A stretch of DNA of 64,000 nucleotides from the NCBI RefSeq assembly GCF_056712565.1, contig NZ_CM160072.1. One strand, 5' to 3'. The first letter of the stretch is position 1; every line of letters begins with the position of its first letter. The translations under genes and the position numbers were made by a program. This document shows, piece after piece, positions 25,315 through 53,946 of this stretch. A model generated the notes under the pieces. That model did not search any database. It saw only the letters and a program-made list of their open reading frames with translations, and was not told where the DNA came from.

Positions 25315-25405
25315 TTTCTGCCGGATGCGGCGTGAACGCCTTATCCGGCCTACGAGTGGCGCAAGAATCTGTAGGCCTGATAAGCGTAGCGCATCAGGCA
25401 GTCTG
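25315..25405. repeat. REP (repetitive extragenic palindromic) elements
   Basis: gccggatgcggcgtgaacgccttatccggcctac and the inverted tgtaggcctgataagcg...catcaggc motifs between yahG and yahI. Confidence 0.8.
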
Positions 25406-29785: not shown

Positions 29786-31270
29786 ATGGAAACCTTCCTT
29801 TCCCTTCGTCATATCAACAAAACGTTTCATGCCACGCGAGCGCTGCGCGATGTTTCTCTCGACTTTATGTCGGGTGAAGTGCACTGTCTTGCCGGGCAAA
29901 ACGGCTGTGGTAAATCGACGTTGATTAAAATTATGTCCGGTGTTTATCGCCCGGATGAGGGAGCGGAAATTACGCTTGGTGGGAAAAACTGGTCAAAGCT
30001 GACACCCGCCGCTTCGGTGGCGCAGGGGATTCAGGTGATTTATCAGGACCTCTCTTTATTTCCTAACCTGAGTGTCTGGGAGAATATCGCCGTGAATCAC
30101 TATCACCACGGTCTGTTTGTTAACCGACGTCGTCTGCGTGAGGTGGCGCAGGCGGCAATGACCAGTATTAACGTCACATTGCCACTGGATACGCTCGTTT
30201 CTGAGCTTTCAATTGCCCGCTGTCAGCTGGTGGCAATTTGCCGTGCACTGGCGCAGGACGCACGGTTGATCGTGATGGATGAACCAACCGCTTCGCTGAC
30301 CCATCAGGAAGTGCAAGGGTTATTACAGGTGGTGCATCAATTGCGGGAACGCGGGATCTGCGTGGTCTTCGTCAGTCATCGTCTGGAAGAAGTGATGGAA
30401 GTTTCCGACCGTATTTCAGTGCTGAAAGATGGTGAGCTGGTCGGGACCTTTCCGGCCGCAGAGATGACCACAAAACAACTCGGTTTTCTGATGACCGGCC
30501 AGGAGTTTGAATATCAGGTGCGAGAGTTGTGGCAGGGAAAATCCAGCACCCCGGTGCTGGAGGTGCGTAATTTAAGTCGTCATGGGGAATATCTAAATAT
30601 TAACTTGCGGGTGGAAGCGGGCGAAGTGGTATCGATTGTTGGCCTGCTTGGTGCGGGGCGCACGGAATTATGTCTGAGTCTGTTTGGTATGACCCGACCG
30701 GATGCTGGCGAGATCCTCATCAACGGCCAGCTGGTTACACTGCATAGTAACCAGGACGCCATCCGCCACGGTATTGGTTATGTTTCGGAAGATCGCATGT
30801 CGCGCGGTTTGGTGATGGCGCAATCTATTGAAGACAACATCATTAGCACTGTTTTTCACAAGGTAAAAGATCGCTTCGGCTTTCTGAGTGAAGCTAAAGT
30901 GTGTGACCTGGTGGACAGGCTAATCAAGGCATTGACCATCAAAGTCTCTGATCCTCATCTCCCGGTGAATACGCTTTCTGGTGGTAACGCGCAGCGAGTA
31001 TCGATCGCCAAATGGCTGGCGATTGGGCCACGACTGTTGATTCTCGATAGCCCGACAGTCGGTGTTGATATCGCCAACAAAGCAGGAATATACGGCATTA
31101 TCAGCGATCTGGCGGCTCATGGCATTGCGGTATTGATGATCTGCGATGAAATTGAAGAAGCGTGGTATCAAAGCCACCGGATTTTGGTAATGCAAAAAGG
31201 TCAGATCACCCATAGCTTCCTGCCTGACAGCAGTTCTCAGGCCAGGATTGCGGAGGTGGTAAATGGCTGA
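29786..31270 (+). CDS. ABC transporter ATP-binding protein with duplicated ATPase domains (RbsA/LsrA-like)
   Basis: Two nucleotide-binding domains (GQNGCGKST; GLLGAGRTE); start at METFLSL with AGGGGA upstream. Confidence 0.85.
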   Translation: METFLSLRHINKTFHATRALRDVSLDFMSGEVHCLAGQNGCGKSTLIKIMSGVYRPDEGAEITLGGKNWSKLTPAASVAQGIQVIYQDLSLFPNLSVWENIAVNHYHHGLFVNRRRLREVAQAAMTSINVTLPLDTLVSELSIARCQLVAICRALAQDARLIVMDEPTASLTHQEVQGLLQVVHQLRERGICVVFVSHRLEEVMEVSDRISVLKDGELVGTFPAAEMTTKQLGFLMTGQEFEYQVRELWQGKSSTPVLEVRNLSRHGEYLNINLRVEAGEVVSIVGLLGAGRTELCLSLFGMTRPDAGEILINGQLVTLHSNQDAIRHGIGYVSEDRMSRGLVMAQSIEDNIISTVFHKVKDRFGFLSEAKVCDLVDRLIKALTIKVSDPHLPVNTLSGGNAQRVSIAKWLAIGPRLLILDSPTVGVDIANKAGIYGIISDLAAHGIAVLMICDEIEEAWYQSHRILVMQKGQITHSFLPDSSSQARIAEVVNG

Positions 31271-32234
31271 ACTGAAAAAACGCCATGAATTCTGGCTGGC
31301 ATTACTGATTGTGGTGCTGTTTGTTGGCCTTGCCTGGCGCAGCGACGAGTTTCTGACATTCGGTAATTTGTACGATCTCGCCAATAACTATGCCATGTTG
31401 ACTATTCTCGCCTGTGGTTTGTTTGTGGTGTTAATTTCCGGTGGGATTGATATTTCGTTTCCGGCAATGACCATCATTGCGCAATACGGCATGGTGCTGC
31501 TGCTGCAAAAAATTGGTGGCAACTTTGCTGTCGCGTTTGCCCTGGCGGGCGGCATCGGCATTTTACTTGGCTTAATTAACGCCTTACTGGTTAATCGCCT
31601 ACGGGTGCCTTCTATCATCATCACTATCTCGACGCTGAATATTTTTTATGGCCTGCTGTTATGGTTGAGTAAAGGTGTGTGGCTGTACGACTTTCCGCCG
31701 TGGTTTGAGCAGGGGGTAATGTTGTTCAAGTACACCGATGCTGATGGCTATGACTATGGCCTTGGTCTGCCGCTGATCGCCATGATTACGGTGGTGCTGC
31801 TGACAGCGTTTATCATGAATTTCACCAGTGTAGGGCGCAAAATTTATGCCCTTGGCGGGAACCGCGAATCAGCCAGTCGCATCGGCTTTAGTGTGCTGAA
31901 ACTGCAACTTTTCGTCTATGGCTATATGGGATTGATGTCTGGTGCTGCGGGTGTAGTGCAGTCGTGGACGGTGATGACTGTCGCCCCCGATTCTCTTCTG
32001 GGTTATGAGCTGACAGTACTGGCTGCGGTGGTGCTTGGCGGCACTAGTTTGCTCGGCGGGCGCGGCACGTTAACCGGTACTTTGCTCGGCGTGGTGTTGT
32101 TGGCAGTGATGCAAAACGGGCTAAATTTATTGGGAGTCTCGTCTTACTGGCAAACATTGATCACCGGCATCATCATCGTTGCCAGCATTAGCGCCACGGC
32201 GTGGAGTCAGCATCAGAACCGGAGTCTGCTATGA
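31263..32234 (+). CDS. ABC transporter permease (RbsC/LsrC-like)
   Basis: 323-aa polytopic membrane protein; start overlaps the ATPase stop. Confidence 0.85.
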   Translation: MAELKKRHEFWLALLIVVLFVGLAWRSDEFLTFGNLYDLANNYAMLTILACGLFVVLISGGIDISFPAMTIIAQYGMVLLLQKIGGNFAVAFALAGGIGILLGLINALLVNRLRVPSIIITISTLNIFYGLLLWLSKGVWLYDFPPWFEQGVMLFKYTDADGYDYGLGLPLIAMITVVLLTAFIMNFTSVGRKIYALGGNRESASRIGFSVLKLQLFVYGYMGLMSGAAGVVQSWTVMTVAPDSLLGYELTVLAAVVLGGTSLLGGRGTLTGTLLGVVLLAVMQNGLNLLGVSSYWQTLITGIIIVASISATAWSQHQNRSLL

Positions 32235-33187
32235 AAAAATCGTGGCGTAATAACGTTGAGTTTTACTTGATCGGCCTGCTGGTGCTAACTGTTGCCGCCT
32301 TCAGCATTACTATGCCGGAGATTTTCTGGTCGATAAGTAATTTCCAGTCCGTCGCTTCGCAAATGCCCGTGCTGGGCATTCTGGCGTTGGCTATGGCGGT
32401 GACCATGCTTTGCGGTGGCATTAACTTGTCAATTATAGCCACTGCTAACGCCTGTTCACTGGTGATGGCGTGGGTGGCGACTCAGTATCCACCAGGTATT
32501 GCTACGGTTGTCGCTACGCTGCTGGCGGGCGCTGGCGCGGCGGTGATAATCGGTTTATGTAACGGCGTATTGATTGCTGGTATTCGAGTGTCGCCAATTC
32601 TTGCAACACTTGGGATGATGACGTTGCTCAAAGGGGTTAATATTCTGGTGACAGGCGGTAGCGCCATTGCCAATTATCCCTCATGGGTGCTGTGGTTGAA
32701 TCATGCACAGTGGTTCGGTATTCCGCTACCGATGTGGTTGTTTACCGCAGTGGCGCTGGGGCTGTGGATATTGCTGGAGAAAACGCCGCTCGGTAAATCC
32801 ATTTATCTGATTGGTTCTAACGAACGAGCAACACTTTACTCCGGTATTAACACTCGTCGGGTGCTGATATGGGTGTATGTCATTTCCGCCTTGCTTTGTG
32901 CGGTAGCGGCATTTTTGATGATGTCGAAACTCAACTCGGCTAAGGCCTCTTATGGCGAATCTTACTTGCTGGTGTCAATCCTCGCGGCAGTACTCGGCGG
33001 GGTTAATCCGGACGGCGGCAGCGGGCGGATAATTGGTATGGTGCTGGCGCTGTTTCTTCTGCAAATTATTGAAAGCGGCTTCAATATTCTCGGTATAAGC
33101 CCCTACCTGACGATGGCCTTATGGGGAACGTTGCTGCTCTGTTTCATTCAGGCTCGCGGCATGTTAGGGCTGGATCGGGTGGTTTAA
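32231..33187 (+). CDS. ABC transporter permease (RbsC/LsrD-like)
   Basis: About 318-aa membrane protein; ATGA overlap with the upstream permease. Confidence 0.85.
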   Translation: MKKSWRNNVEFYLIGLLVLTVAAFSITMPEIFWSISNFQSVASQMPVLGILALAMAVTMLCGGINLSIIATANACSLVMAWVATQYPPGIATVVATLLAGAGAAVIIGLCNGVLIAGIRVSPILATLGMMTLLKGVNILVTGGSAIANYPSWVLWLNHAQWFGIPLPMWLFTAVALGLWILLEKTPLGKSIYLIGSNERATLYSGINTRRVLIWVYVISALLCAVAAFLMMSKLNSAKASYGESYLLVSILAAVLGGVNPDGGSGRIIGMVLALFLLQIIESGFNILGISPYLTMALWGTLLLCFIQARGMLGLDRVV

Positions 33188-33273
33188 ATATTGGCTATAT
33201 TCAATGGACGCGTTTTGCCGCGATGACATATCAGGCATCGCCAAATACACATAGCTAATCAGGAGTAAACACA

Positions 33274-34323
33274 ATGAAGATCAAAGCTGTTGGTGCATAT
33301 TCCGCTAAACAACCGCTTGAACCGATGGATATCACCCGGCGTGAACCGGGACCGCATGATGTCAAAATTGAAATCGCTTACTGTGGCGTCTGCCATTCCG
33401 ATATCCACCAGGTCCGTTCCGAGTGGGCGGGGACGGTTTATCCCTGCGTGCCGGGCCATGAAATTGTAGGGCGCGTGGTAGCCGTTGGTGATCAGGTAGA
33501 AAAATATGCGCCGGGCGATCTGGTTGGTGTCGGCTGCATTGTCGACAGTTGTAAACATTGCGAAGAGTGTGAAGATGGGCTGGAAAACTACTGTGATCAC
33601 ATGACCGGAACCTATAACTCGCCGACACCGGATGAACCGGGCCATACTCTGGGCGGCTACTCACAACAGATCGTCGTTCATGAGCGATATGTTCTGCGTA
33701 TTCGTCACCCGCAAGAGCAGCTGGCGGCGGTGGCTCCTTTATTGTGTGCAGGAATCACCACGTACTCGCCGCTACGCCACTGGCTGGCCGGGCCGGGTAA
33801 AAAAGTGGGCGTGGTCGGCATCGGCGGTCTGGGACATATGGGGATTAAACTGGCCCACGCGATGGGGGCGCATGTGGTGGCATTTACCACTTCTGAGTCA
33901 AAACGCGAAGCGGCAAAAGCCCTGGGGGCCGATGAAGTTGTTAACTCACGCAATGCCGATGAGATGGTGGCTCATGTGAAGAGTTTCGATTTCATTTTGA
34001 ATACAGTAGCTGCGCCACATAATCTCGACGATTTTACCACCTTGCTGAAGCGCGATGGCACCATAACGCTGGTTGGTGCGCCTGCGACACCGCATAAATC
34101 GCCGGAAGTTTTCAACCTGATCATGAAACGCCGCGCGATAGCTGGTTCTATGATTGGCGGCATTCCAGAAACTCAGGAGATGCTCGATTTTTGCGCCGAA
34201 CATGGCATCGTGGCTGATATAGAGATGATTCGGGCCGATCAAATTAATGAAGCCTATGAGCGAATGCTGCGTGGTGATGTGAAATATCGTTTTGTTATCG
34301 ATAATCGCACACTAACAGACTGA
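33274..34323 (+). CDS. yahK: NADPH-dependent aldehyde reductase YahK (zinc-dependent alcohol dehydrogenase family)
   Basis: 349 aa; GHE..G zinc motif and GxGxxG cofactor motif. Confidence 0.9.
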   Translation: MKIKAVGAYSAKQPLEPMDITRREPGPHDVKIEIAYCGVCHSDIHQVRSEWAGTVYPCVPGHEIVGRVVAVGDQVEKYAPGDLVGVGCIVDSCKHCEECEDGLENYCDHMTGTYNSPTPDEPGHTLGGYSQQIVVHERYVLRIRHPQEQLAAVAPLLCAGITTYSPLRHWLAGPGKKVGVVGIGGLGHMGIKLAHAMGAHVVAFTTSESKREAAKALGADEVVNSRNADEMVAHVKSFDFILNTVAAPHNLDDFTTLLKRDGTITLVGAPATPHKSPEVFNLIMKRRAIAGSMIGGIPETQEMLDFCAEHGIVADIEMIRADQINEAYERMLRGDVKYRFVIDNRTLTD

Positions 34324-44065: not shown

Positions 44066-45325
44066 GTGTCGCAAGATAACAACTTTAGCCAGGGGCCAGT
44101 CCCGCAGTCGGCGCGGAAAGGGGTATTGGCATTGACGTTCGTCATGCTGGGATTAACCTTCTTTTCCGCCAGTATGTGGACCGGCGGCACTCTCGGAACC
44201 GGTCTTAGCTATCATGATTTCTTCCTCGCAGTTCTCATCGGTAATCTTCTCCTCGGTATTTACACTTCATTTCTTGGTTACATTGGCGCAAAAACCGGCC
44301 TGACCACCCATCTTCTTGCTCGCTTCTCGTTTGGTGTTAAAGGCTCATGGTTGCCTTCACTGCTGCTGGGCGGCACCCAGGTTGGCTGGTTTGGCGTTGG
44401 CGTGGCGATGTTTTCTATTCCGGTGGGCAAGGCAACCGGGCTGGATATTAATTTGCTGATTGCCGTCTCCGGTTTACTGATGACCGTCACCGTCTTCTTT
44501 GGCATTTCGGCGCTGACGGTTCTTTCGGTGATTGCGGTTCCGGCTATCGCCTGCCTTGGCGGTTATTCCGTGTGGCTGGCCGTTAACGGCATGGGCGGCC
44601 TGGACGTATTAAAAGCGGTCGTTCCCGCACAACCGTTAGATTTCAATGTCGCGCTGGCGCTGGTTGTGGGGTCATTCATCAGTGCGGGTACGCTCACCGC
44701 TGACTTTGTCCGGTTTGGTCGCAATGCCAAACTGGCGGTGCTGGTGGCGATGGTGGCCTTTTTCCTCGGCAACTCGTTGATGTTTATTTTCGGTGCAGCG
44801 GGCGCTGCGGCACTGGGGATGGCGGATATCTCTGATGTGATGATTGCTCAGGGCCTGCTGCTGCCTGCGATTGTGGTGCTGGGGCTGAATATCTGGACCA
44901 CCAACGATAACGCGCTCTATGCGTCGGGTTTAGGTTTCGCCAACATTACCGGTATGTCGAGCAAAACCCTTTCGGTGATTAACGGTATTATCGGTACGGT
45001 CTGCGCATTATGGCTGTATAACAATTTTGTCGGCTGGTTGACCTTCCTTTCGGCAGCTATTCCTCCAGTGGGCGGCGTGATCATCGCTGATTATCTGATG
45101 AACCGTCGCCGCTATGAGCACTTTGCGACCACGCGTATGATGAGTGTCAATTGGGTGGCGATTCTGGCGGTCGCGCTGGGGATTGCCGCAGGCCACTGGT
45201 TACCGGGAATTGTTCCGGTCAACGCGGTATTAGGTGGCGCGCTGAGCTATCTGATCCTTAACCCGATTTTGAATCGTAAAACGACAGCAGCAATGACGCA
45301 TGTGGAGGCTAACAGTGTCGAATAA
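44066..45325 (+). CDS. codB: Cytosine permease CodB
   Basis: 419 aa; GTG start after a G-rich Shine-Dalgarno; NCS1-family membrane protein. Confidence 0.95.
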
Positions 45326-46598
45326 TGCTTTACAAACAATTATTAACGCCCAGTTACCCGGCAAAGAGGGGCTGTGGCAGATTCATCTTCACGACGGAAA
45401 AATCAGCGCCATTGATGCGCAATCCGGGGTGATGCCCGTAACTGAAAACAGCCTGGATGCCGAACAAGGTTTAGTTTTACCGCCGTTTGTGGAGCCGCAT
45501 ATTCACCTGGACACCACGCAAACCGCCGGACAACCGAACTGGAATCAGTCCGGCACGCTGTTTGAAGGCATTGAACGCTGGGCCGAGCGCAAAGCGTTAT
45601 TAACTCATGACGATGTGAAACAACGCGCATGGCAAACGCTGAAATGGCAGATTGCCAACGGCATTCAGCATGTGCGTACCCATGTCGATGTCTCCGACGC
45701 AACGCTGACTGCGTTGAAAGCGATGCTGGAAGTGAAACAGGAAGTTGCGCCGTGGATTGATCTGCAAATCGTCGCCTTCCCGCAGGAAGGGATTTTGTCG
45801 TATCCCAACGGTGAAGCGTTGCTGGAAGAGGCGCTACGCTTAGGGGCAGATGTTGTTGGGGCGATTCCGCATTTTGAATTTACCCGTGAATACGGCGTGG
45901 AGTCGCTGCATAAAACCTTCGCCCTGGCGCAAAAATACGACCGTCTCATCGACGTTCACTGTGATGAGATCGATGACGAGCAGTCGCGCTTTGTCGAAAC
46001 CGTTGCTGCCCTGGCGCACCGTGAAGGCATGGGCGCGCGAGTCACCGCTAGCCATACTACGGCAATGCACTCCTATAACGGGGCGTATACTTCGCGCCTG
46101 TTCCGTTTGCTGAAAATGTCCGGTATTAACTTTGTCGCCAACCCGTTGGTCAATATTCATCTGCAAGGACGTTTCGATACGTATCCAAAACGTCGCGGCA
46201 TCACGCGCGTTAAAGAGATGCTGGAGTCCGGCATTAACGTCTGCTTTGGTCACGATGATGTCTTCGATCCGTGGTATCCGCTGGGAACGGCGAATATGCT
46301 GCAAGTGCTGCATATGGGGCTGCATGTTTGCCAGCTGATGGGCTACGGGCAGATTAACGACGGCCTGAATTTAATCACCCACCACAGCGCCAGGACGTTG
46401 AATTTGCAGGATTACGGCATTGCCGCCGGAAACAGCGCCAACCTGATTATCCTGCCGGCTGAAAATGGGTTTGATGCGCTGCGCCGTCAGGTTCCGGTAC
46501 GTTATTCGGTACGTGGCGGCAAGGTGATTGCCAGCACACAACCGGCACAAACCACCGTATATCTGGAGCAGCCAGAAGCCATCGATTACAAACGGTAA
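45315..46598 (+). CDS. codA: Cytosine deaminase CodA
   Basis: 427 aa from a GTG start (MSNNALQ) overlapping the codB 3' end; amidohydrolase HxH motif. Confidence 0.95.
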
Positions 46599-46627
46599 TC
46601 GGCTGGGTTACCGCGAGCGTAGTTTAT

Positions 46628-46705
46628 GCCGGATGCGGCGTGAACACCTTATCCGGCCTACGTAGATCTCTGAAATTGTAGGCCTGATAAGCGGAGCGCA
46701 TCAGG
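46628..46705. repeat. REP elements in the codA-lacA gap
   Basis: gccggatgcggcgtgaacaccttatccggcctac and inverted tgtaggcctgataagcggagcgcatcaggc. Confidence 0.8.
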
Positions 46706-46718
46706 CAATTTTGCTTAT

Positions 46719-47330
46719 TTAAACTGAAGACTCAACTTTAAAATCTTTGAAATAATATTGCTTATCCCGGTCGTTTATTTCGCGAATAACCCGACAAGGA
46801 ACGCCAGCAGCCACGACGTTTGGTGGAATGTCTTTTGTGACGACACTACCCGCGCCAATAACAGAATTATCCCCGATGGTGACGCCTGGATTAATAACCA
46901 CATGACTTCCGATCCAGACGTTATTGCCAATCGTTATCGGAAAAGAGTACATCTCTCCGTTTTTTCTCAATTCATGGTGTACCGGGTGTCCCGTAACGGA
47001 AAGAGTAACGTTGGGTGCAATCAGTACGTTATCACCGATCGTTACCGTGTAGTCGTCGACAATGGTTAAATTGAAATTTGCATAAAAATTGCGGCCTATA
47101 TAGATGTTGGAACCGTAAGAGAAATAGACGGGGGGTTCTACCCAGGCGTTTTCCCCTACCGTGGCAAACATTTCTTTAATCAGACTTTCTCTTTTATCAA
47201 CTTCTGATGGATGCGAGTGATTAAACTCATACATTAACGTTTTTCCACGAAGTCTTTTTTCAGGTAAGCCTTCGCACATATCGGTAAATAGCTTGCCTGC
47301 TTTTATTCTTTCTGTCATCGACATGTTCAT
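46719..47330 (-). CDS. lacA: Galactoside O-acetyltransferase LacA
   Basis: 203 aa from MNMSMTERIKAGK; hexapeptide-repeat acetyltransferase. Confidence 0.95.
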   Translation of the reverse strand: MNMSMTERIKAGKLFTDMCEGLPEKRLRGKTLMYEFNHSHPSEVDKRESLIKEMFATVGENAWVEPPVYFSYGSNIYIGRNFYANFNLTIVDDYTVTIGDNVLIAPNVTLSVTGHPVHHELRKNGEMYSFPITIGNNVWIGSHVVINPGVTIGDNSVIGAGSVVTKDIPPNVVAAGVPCRVIREINDRDKQYYFKDFKVESSV

Positions 47331-47339
47331 TGCGATCAT

Positions 47340-47395
47340 TCCGCCCTGATATGTTGGTCGGATAAGGCGCTCGCGCCGCATCCGACATTGATTGC
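47340..47395. repeat. REP element between lacA and lacY
   Basis: ggtcggataaggcgctcgcgccgcatccgac motif; its translation explains the spurious MRRERLIRPT N-terminal extension of the lacA ORF. Confidence 0.75.
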
Positions 47396-48694
<1,299 letters not shown>

Positions 48695-48700
48695 TTATTA

Positions 48701-51813
<3,113 letters not shown>

Positions 51814-52980: not shown

Positions 52981-53181
52981 ATTCACCACCCTGAATTGAC
53001 TCTCTTCCGGGCGCTATCATGCCATACCGCGAAAGGTTTTGCGCCATTCGGCGAGGCTGACGCCGAAGTGAGATTTAAAATGCTGACGCCAGGTCACAGG
53101 TGAGAGAAAACCCACGCCAATACACCTACGGCGTTTACAGGTATACTCGCTAAAAATTATTCAGCGGGTTTGGAAACAAAG

Positions 53182-53721: not shown

Positions 53722-53946
<225 letters not shown>

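Follow-up and report, generated by a model that had tools for sequence, protein, structure and literature searches.

The window analysed here is a stretch of 64,000 nucleotides from contig NZ_CM160072.1 of NCBI RefSeq assembly GCF_056712565.1. Within it, the convergent codA and lacA genes are separated by a short extragenic spacer that contains a pair of REPs (Table 1). The codA reading frame ends with the TAA codon at 46596-46598. The longest lacA reading frame runs from 46719 to 47381 on the minus strand and its stop codon occupies 46719-46721. The CodA and LacA proteins of the window share 99% and 96% amino acid identity, respectively, with those of K-12. The 701 bp from 46300 to 47000 are 100% identical to the chromosome of Escherichia coli DSM 30083 (= ATCC 11775), the type strain, which belongs to phylogroup B2, and in that chromosome codA and lacA are annotated with nothing between them. 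Across the junction, the B2 reference strains UM146, E2348/69 and APEC O1:K1:H7 show 99.9-100% identity to the window.

Table 1. Features of the codA-lacA junction (positions in the window)
Feature	Position	Strand	Remarks
codA (cytosine/isoguanine deaminase)	45315..46598	+	intact ORF, 427 aa; annotated in identical record NZ_CP033092.2
codA-lacA intergenic spacer	46599..46718		120 bp; position held by cynR-cynTSX in K-12
Y-type REP (palindromic unit), full length	46628..46661	+	1 mismatch to GCCGGATGCGGCGTGAACGCCTTATCCGGCCTAC; chance expectation 0
linker between the REPs	46662..46677	.	16 nt (GTAGATCTCTGAAATT)
Z2-type REP, opposite in orientation to the Y unit	46678..46706	-	1 mismatch to GCCTGATGCGCTACGCTTATCAGGCCTAC; chance expectation 0
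lacA (galactoside O-acetyltransferase)	46719..47330	-	annotated gene of 612 nt in identical record (NZ_CP033092.2)
lacY and lacZ, remainder of the lac operon beside the junction	47396..51775	-	

In K-12 MG1655, the codA-lacA interval holds cynR-cynTSX (about 3.5 kb), with cynR on the minus strand and cynT, cynS and cynX on the plus strand. An earlier note on this DNA had placed the codA stop at 46598 and the lacA stop at 46719, with 120 bp between them, and had claimed that the cyanate operon, which sits between these two genes in K-12, is missing here. The coordinates of the reading frames agree with these positions, the comparison with MG1655 bears out the location of the cyn genes in K-12, and the DSM 30083 annotation, identical across the junction, has no cynRTSX in the interval. 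A copy of the operon elsewhere on the same chromosome had been named in the note as the other thing to look for. The search outside the locus was made with cynS on the DSM 30083 chromosome and gave no second site, the junction being the sole match.

That search was part of one covering all complete E. coli genomes, with the junction (701 nt) joined to K-12 cynS (471 nt) as the query at E<=1e-60. In separate comparisons with the 5,426 complete genomes, the contiguous codA-lacA junction was present in 985 and cynRTSX DNA in 4,262; fewer than 200 had neither and carry other rearrangements. With the joined query, no cynS was found anywhere in the record in any of the 40 junction holders listed, which include DSM 30083, UM146, E2348/69 and APEC O1:K1:H7. 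Other strains with the junction are UTI89, S88, IHE3034, NU14 and APEC O1. It is close to certain that the absence of cyn here is a real difference in gene content. The haplotype of the window, without cynR and cynTSX and with a single Y-linker-Z2 BIME between the convergent codA and lacA genes, is typical of phylogroup B2 E. coli.

Other match patterns were also seen. Approximately one sixth of a spread sample of the junction matches covered the codA part only. E. coli HN68 (H141, NZ_CP141844.1, 3835787-3837100) has an incomplete cynR, which places codA and cynS near enough to be joined as one match.

REPs are imperfect palindromes of about 30-35 nt, and in a bacterial interspersed mosaic element (BIME) consecutive REPs alternate in orientation across short linkers; such elements are extragenic, usually close to gene 3' ends, and are scattered through the genome in many copies. 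Y and Z2 palindromic units in a BIME-2-like arrangement belong to the classification of Gilson, Bachellier and Hofnung. It is close to certain that the spacer at 46599-46718 is one such BIME, composed of the Y unit, the linker and the inverted Z2 unit. The same Y(+)-linker-Z2(-) architecture is repeated in the window at 25320-25399, and more REPs lie at 53797-53931. The spacer folds more stably than shuffled controls on both strands (z -2.8 and -3.6), and hairpins are predicted. A scan of the spacer for promoter-like or intrinsic-terminator-like sites found none. The Rfam family naRNA4, a family of REP-derived sRNAs, gave a weak sub-threshold match at 46601-46658. This match was not accepted as a sign of an sRNA gene in the spacer. 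The spacer also has an 11-nt match (GGTTACCGCGA) to the 3' end of cynR in O157 and in locus L085, which was considered as a footprint of cynR. It was rejected as a deletion scar because K-12, which carries cyn, has a near-identical sequence at the same place.

The strains that carry cyn differ in the repeats that flank it. In O157:H7 and K-12, a BIME lies on either side of the cyn genes; the two are direct repeats of 65-67 nt with 83-84% identity and are 3461-3474 bp apart. The locus is highly variable, however. Three versions of the codA-cynR spacer were seen, namely one of 39 bp that lacks a BIME, one of 132 bp that has a BIME, and the 336-bp version of K-12, in which the BIME is accompanied by a 200-bp tandem duplication. 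The spacer between cynX and lacA is either 102 bp long, with a BIME, or 87 bp long, with an unrelated hairpin. The lacA-side BIME is present in 3,062 and the codA-side BIME in 2,464 of the 4,262 genomes with cyn. From these two counts it follows that at least 1,264 of them carry both BIMEs, and thus the substrate for a deletion. BIMEs on both sides are therefore not universal among cyn-bearing haplotypes; the haplotypes of the phylogroup F type have no lacA-side BIME, and some of them have no codA-side BIME as well.

Several spacer variants of these cyn-bearing strains are recorded here in their own right. The K-12 duplication in the codA-cynR spacer (L001, 6321-6719) repeats the BIME and the 3' end of cynR with 97% identity, so that this spacer contains a pseudogene fragment of the cynR 3' end and the BIME is present in three copies. 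It is not confined to laboratory K-12, since many other genomes give an identical 85.7% match. E. coli 504211 (L083, 11696-11773) has cyn without lacA, with a cynX-lacY gap of 78 bp and a codA-cynR gap of 39 bp that lacks a BIME. In O157 (L087, 6384-6400) and K-12 (L001, 10021-10037), the lacA-side BIME has an internally shortened Y unit, with CTAC or TAAT immediately after GCCGGATGCGGC, which would fit a slip deletion between the two copies of CGGC in this unit. Unlike the lacA-side BIME of O157 and K-12, the B2 junction keeps a full-length Y unit.

The flanks of the BIME in the window are of two different types. On its left, CGCGAGCGTAGTTTA and the full Y unit are of the codA-cynR type; by alignment, this flank is homologous to that of the codA-cynR BIME in K-12, O157 and L085. 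On its right, the Z2 unit is followed by GGCAATTTT, a hexamer and TTAAAC, a boundary of the cynX-lacA type that the window shares with K-12, O157 and L003, a cyn-less Escherichia locus described below. Hybrid flanks of this kind are the expected product of a crossover between the two BIMEs that bracket cyn, and that origin is supported structurally by the sequences compared. The earlier note had described the spacer as REP-containing and had suggested REPs as plausible recombination sites. The matches to the Y and Z2 consensus sequences establish the REP pair, and the direct BIME repeats of K-12 and O157, together with the hybrid flanks, lend support to the second idea, with the event itself deduced from these comparisons.

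We propose that cyn was deleted on the B2 lineage by recombination between the flanking BIMEs, and we consider this the probable course of events, with both the mechanism and the direction being read from sequence comparison. The ancestor would have had the order codA-BIME-cynR-cynTSX-BIME-lacA, an arrangement still found in K-12 and O157. Homologous recombination between the direct repeats would excise about 3.47 kb and leave one hybrid BIME, in which the left flank of the codA-side copy is joined to the right flank of the lacA-side copy. Such a deletion would leave the cell with no cyanase, no cyn-linked carbonic anhydrase and no cyanate transporter, and the convergent codA and lacA transcripts would now end in the same REP hairpins.

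The details within the BIME are less simple than its flanks. The 16-nt linker aligns more closely with the linker of the cynX-lacA BIME of O157 and K-12 (GATC..TTGTAGG) than with that of the codA-cynR BIME (GAGC..CTCGTAGG), while one diagnostic site in the Z2 unit is of the left type. With the diagnostic sites forming a mosaic in this way, a single clean crossover is unreadable when K-12 and O157 are used as stand-ins for the parents. In addition, a REP-REP deletion would be impossible if the B2 ancestor had been F-like, because the F-type haplotypes do not have the lacA-side BIME and some do not have the codA-side one.

A loss on the B2 lineage is favoured by two observations. First, strain IAI39 of phylogroup F, which is usually placed near B2, has cyn at the codA-lacA locus. 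Second, cyn divergence among non-B2 strains reaches 3.9% in cynX, 3.1% in cynR and 2.8% in cynTS, values as large as those that separate the codB, codA and lacA flanks of B2 from the flanks of other strains. This match indicates that cyn is about as old at the locus as the species. Furthermore, the distances between the flanks do not set B2 apart as an outgroup.

These same observations weigh against the alternative that the cyn-less junction with a single BIME is the ancestral Escherichia state, kept by B2, and that cyn was gained in the ancestor of the other phylogroups. In that case, cynR-cynTSX would have been inserted in or beside the BIME, for example by Campbell-type integration of a BIME-bearing circle, which would duplicate the BIME; cyn may then have passed from one phylogroup to another, with homologous recombination taking place in the codA and lac flanks. 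We regard this alternative as possible but rather unlikely. The main point in its favour is L003, a divergent Escherichia lineage with about 92% DNA identity to the window and no more than 92.5% identity to any of the complete E. coli genomes. L003 has codA, a 95-bp BIME and lacA without cyn, and with the GGCAATTTT boundary noted above; it was the only other Escherichia locus among the matches listed in the CodA scan. Because L003 is cyn-less, the absence may be ancestral, or else the loss occurred at least twice. B2 and L003 agree at two of the three clean left/right BIME sites, as expected of retained pre-duplication states. Moreover, the closest cyn cassettes outside Escherichia (CynS with 90% amino acid identity) are located elsewhere in the chromosome and include an additional gene for a deaminase, indicating that the codA-lacA position is specific to Escherichia. 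On the other hand, one outgroup genome carries little weight, and direct repeats such as these could easily give rise to the deletion more than once.

A related and more doubtful idea is that the codA-lacA BIME is an ancient reusable point of integration and excision, whose empty form has been kept by B2 and the outgroup Escherichia. The cyn cassette, which has a different location in Citrobacter and Trabulsiella, would have been brought in by recombination at the BIME, with duplication of the latter, and could leave by the reverse reaction. If this were true, REP clusters would serve a metabolic cassette the size of an operon much as attachment sites do.

Deletion without REP homology appears quite improbable. 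It could have been an illegitimate or microhomology-mediated event in an F-like haplotype, or could have taken place between IS1397 copies in the flanking BIMEs. An F-type B2 ancestor would need such a route, since F-type haplotypes do not have the lacA-side BIME, and IS1397 is indeed inserted at the BIME of this locus in IAI39 and GABEEC10. However, the junction GGCAATTTTGCTTAT is, by inspection, not obtainable by simple deletion from the F-type sequences, and the window shares its BIME-lacA boundary with the haplotypes that have two BIMEs and with L003. The spacer of the window contains no IS or IS remnant, and for this reason IS-mediated deletion was rejected. An assembly or reading artefact in which cyn was collapsed or missed can practically be dismissed, as 985 complete genomes that were assembled independently share this junction, and the sampled records contain no cynS.

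The BIME-specific element IS1397 was found at this locus in two unrelated strains. In IAI39 (L088, 14373-15721), it is inserted in the orthologous BIME and splits the Y unit. In GABEEC10 (L084, 6606-7949), it adjoins lacA, and the region beyond it is yphB-yphG, not codA. The GABEEC10 arrangement suggests that the IS mediated an inversion or translocation, one breakpoint of which was the codA-lacA BIME.

The spacer shares with other REP/BIME elements of E. coli its Y and Z2 units, their inverted orientation, the short linker and the extragenic site between convergent genes. The same BIME is also an IS1397 target in relatives; it is an ordinary two-unit BIME with nothing unusual. Functions ascribed to REP/BIME elements include mRNA 3'-end stabilisation and the binding of gyrase, IHF and Pol I; what this spacer offers in that respect is predicted hairpins. 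REP-REP recombination reportedly yields duplications in Salmonella, as Shyamala et al. are said to have described in 1990. As in other REP-mediated rearrangements, direct REP clusters flank the variable segment in the cyn-bearing allele, and one hybrid copy is found in the cyn-less allele. In contrast to the rearrangements selected in the laboratory, the codA-lacA case is a natural, fixed and lineage-wide polymorphism, whose event and direction are deduced from comparison.

The presence/absence polymorphism of cyn in B2 has been known since 2009. Table 5 of Touchon et al. 2009 (PLoS Genet 5:e1000344, PMC2617782) gives cynRTSX, for cyanate degradation, among the functions specifically absent in B2. 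Fang et al. 2018 predicted B2 strains to be without growth on cyanate, and Touchon et al. 2020 found a negative association of B2 with cyanate degradation genes. Our results concern the same missing gene set and the same phylogroup as in these three papers, and the junction is common to the B2 genomes UTI89, S88, APEC O1 and E2348/69. The passages of these papers considered here deal with gene presence and absence only, whereas the single hybrid BIME and the flanking direct BIME repeats are described here. There is one disagreement. Table 5 of Touchon et al. 2009 gives codA as absent in B2, but codA is intact in the window and is also annotated in many B2 genomes; the entry in that table may be a product of the orthology criteria.

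The junction anatomy adds mechanistic detail to this polymorphism and is an ordinary example of a REP-associated rearrangement; current understanding is unchanged by it. It is a concrete natural case of REP/BIME repeats around an operon-sized presence/absence polymorphism. The cyn genes are among the metabolic genes whose loss defines B2, the group holding most extraintestinal pathogenic E. coli. Absence of cyn predicts an inability to detoxify cyanate or to use it as a nitrogen source. As a typing marker, PCR across codA-lacA would tell B2-type strains from others.

Other differences in gene content were seen in the neighbourhood. Between yahK and yahJ, the window has a four-gene cluster for a sugar/AI-2-like ABC transporter together with an ASCH-domain gene (about 30230-33670; 3647824-3652921 in the record), and IAI39 has the same. 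In K-12, yahJ and yahK are presumably adjacent. On the other side of the lac operon, at 52981-53181 of the window (lacI-yaiL), there is no mhp cluster; lacI is followed by a 99-nt pseudogene fragment of a GlxA-family regulator (53017-53115) and then by yaiL. In K-12, the mhpR-mhpABCDFE-mhpT cluster follows lacI. In IAI39, mhpR-mhpABC adjoins lacI. With both mhp and cyn missing, the lac operon of the window is flanked on both sides by missing catabolic clusters. Touchon et al. 2009 (PMC2617782) noted the absence of mhp from mouse-virulent B2 strains.

Relatives outside Escherichia have their own arrangements of these genes. In Citrobacter farmeri and Trabulsiella guamensis (L091, 7305-11169, and L092, 7283-11120), the cyn cassette consists of genes for a LysR regulator, a carbonic anhydrase, a cyanase and an MFS transporter. 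It has an extra gene of the cytidine/deoxycytidylate-deaminase family between cynS and cynX, and it adjoins ypdK-alaC-ypdAB, not lac or cod. The different site of cyn in C. farmeri and Trabulsiella indicates that the cassette moved during enterobacterial evolution. In Hafnia paralvei ATCC 29927 (L004, 8740-11281), CodB and CodA are 94% and 90% identical, respectively, to the E. coli proteins, as compared to 82-84% in Salmonella and Citrobacter. These identities suggest horizontal transfer of codBA between Escherichia and Hafnia.
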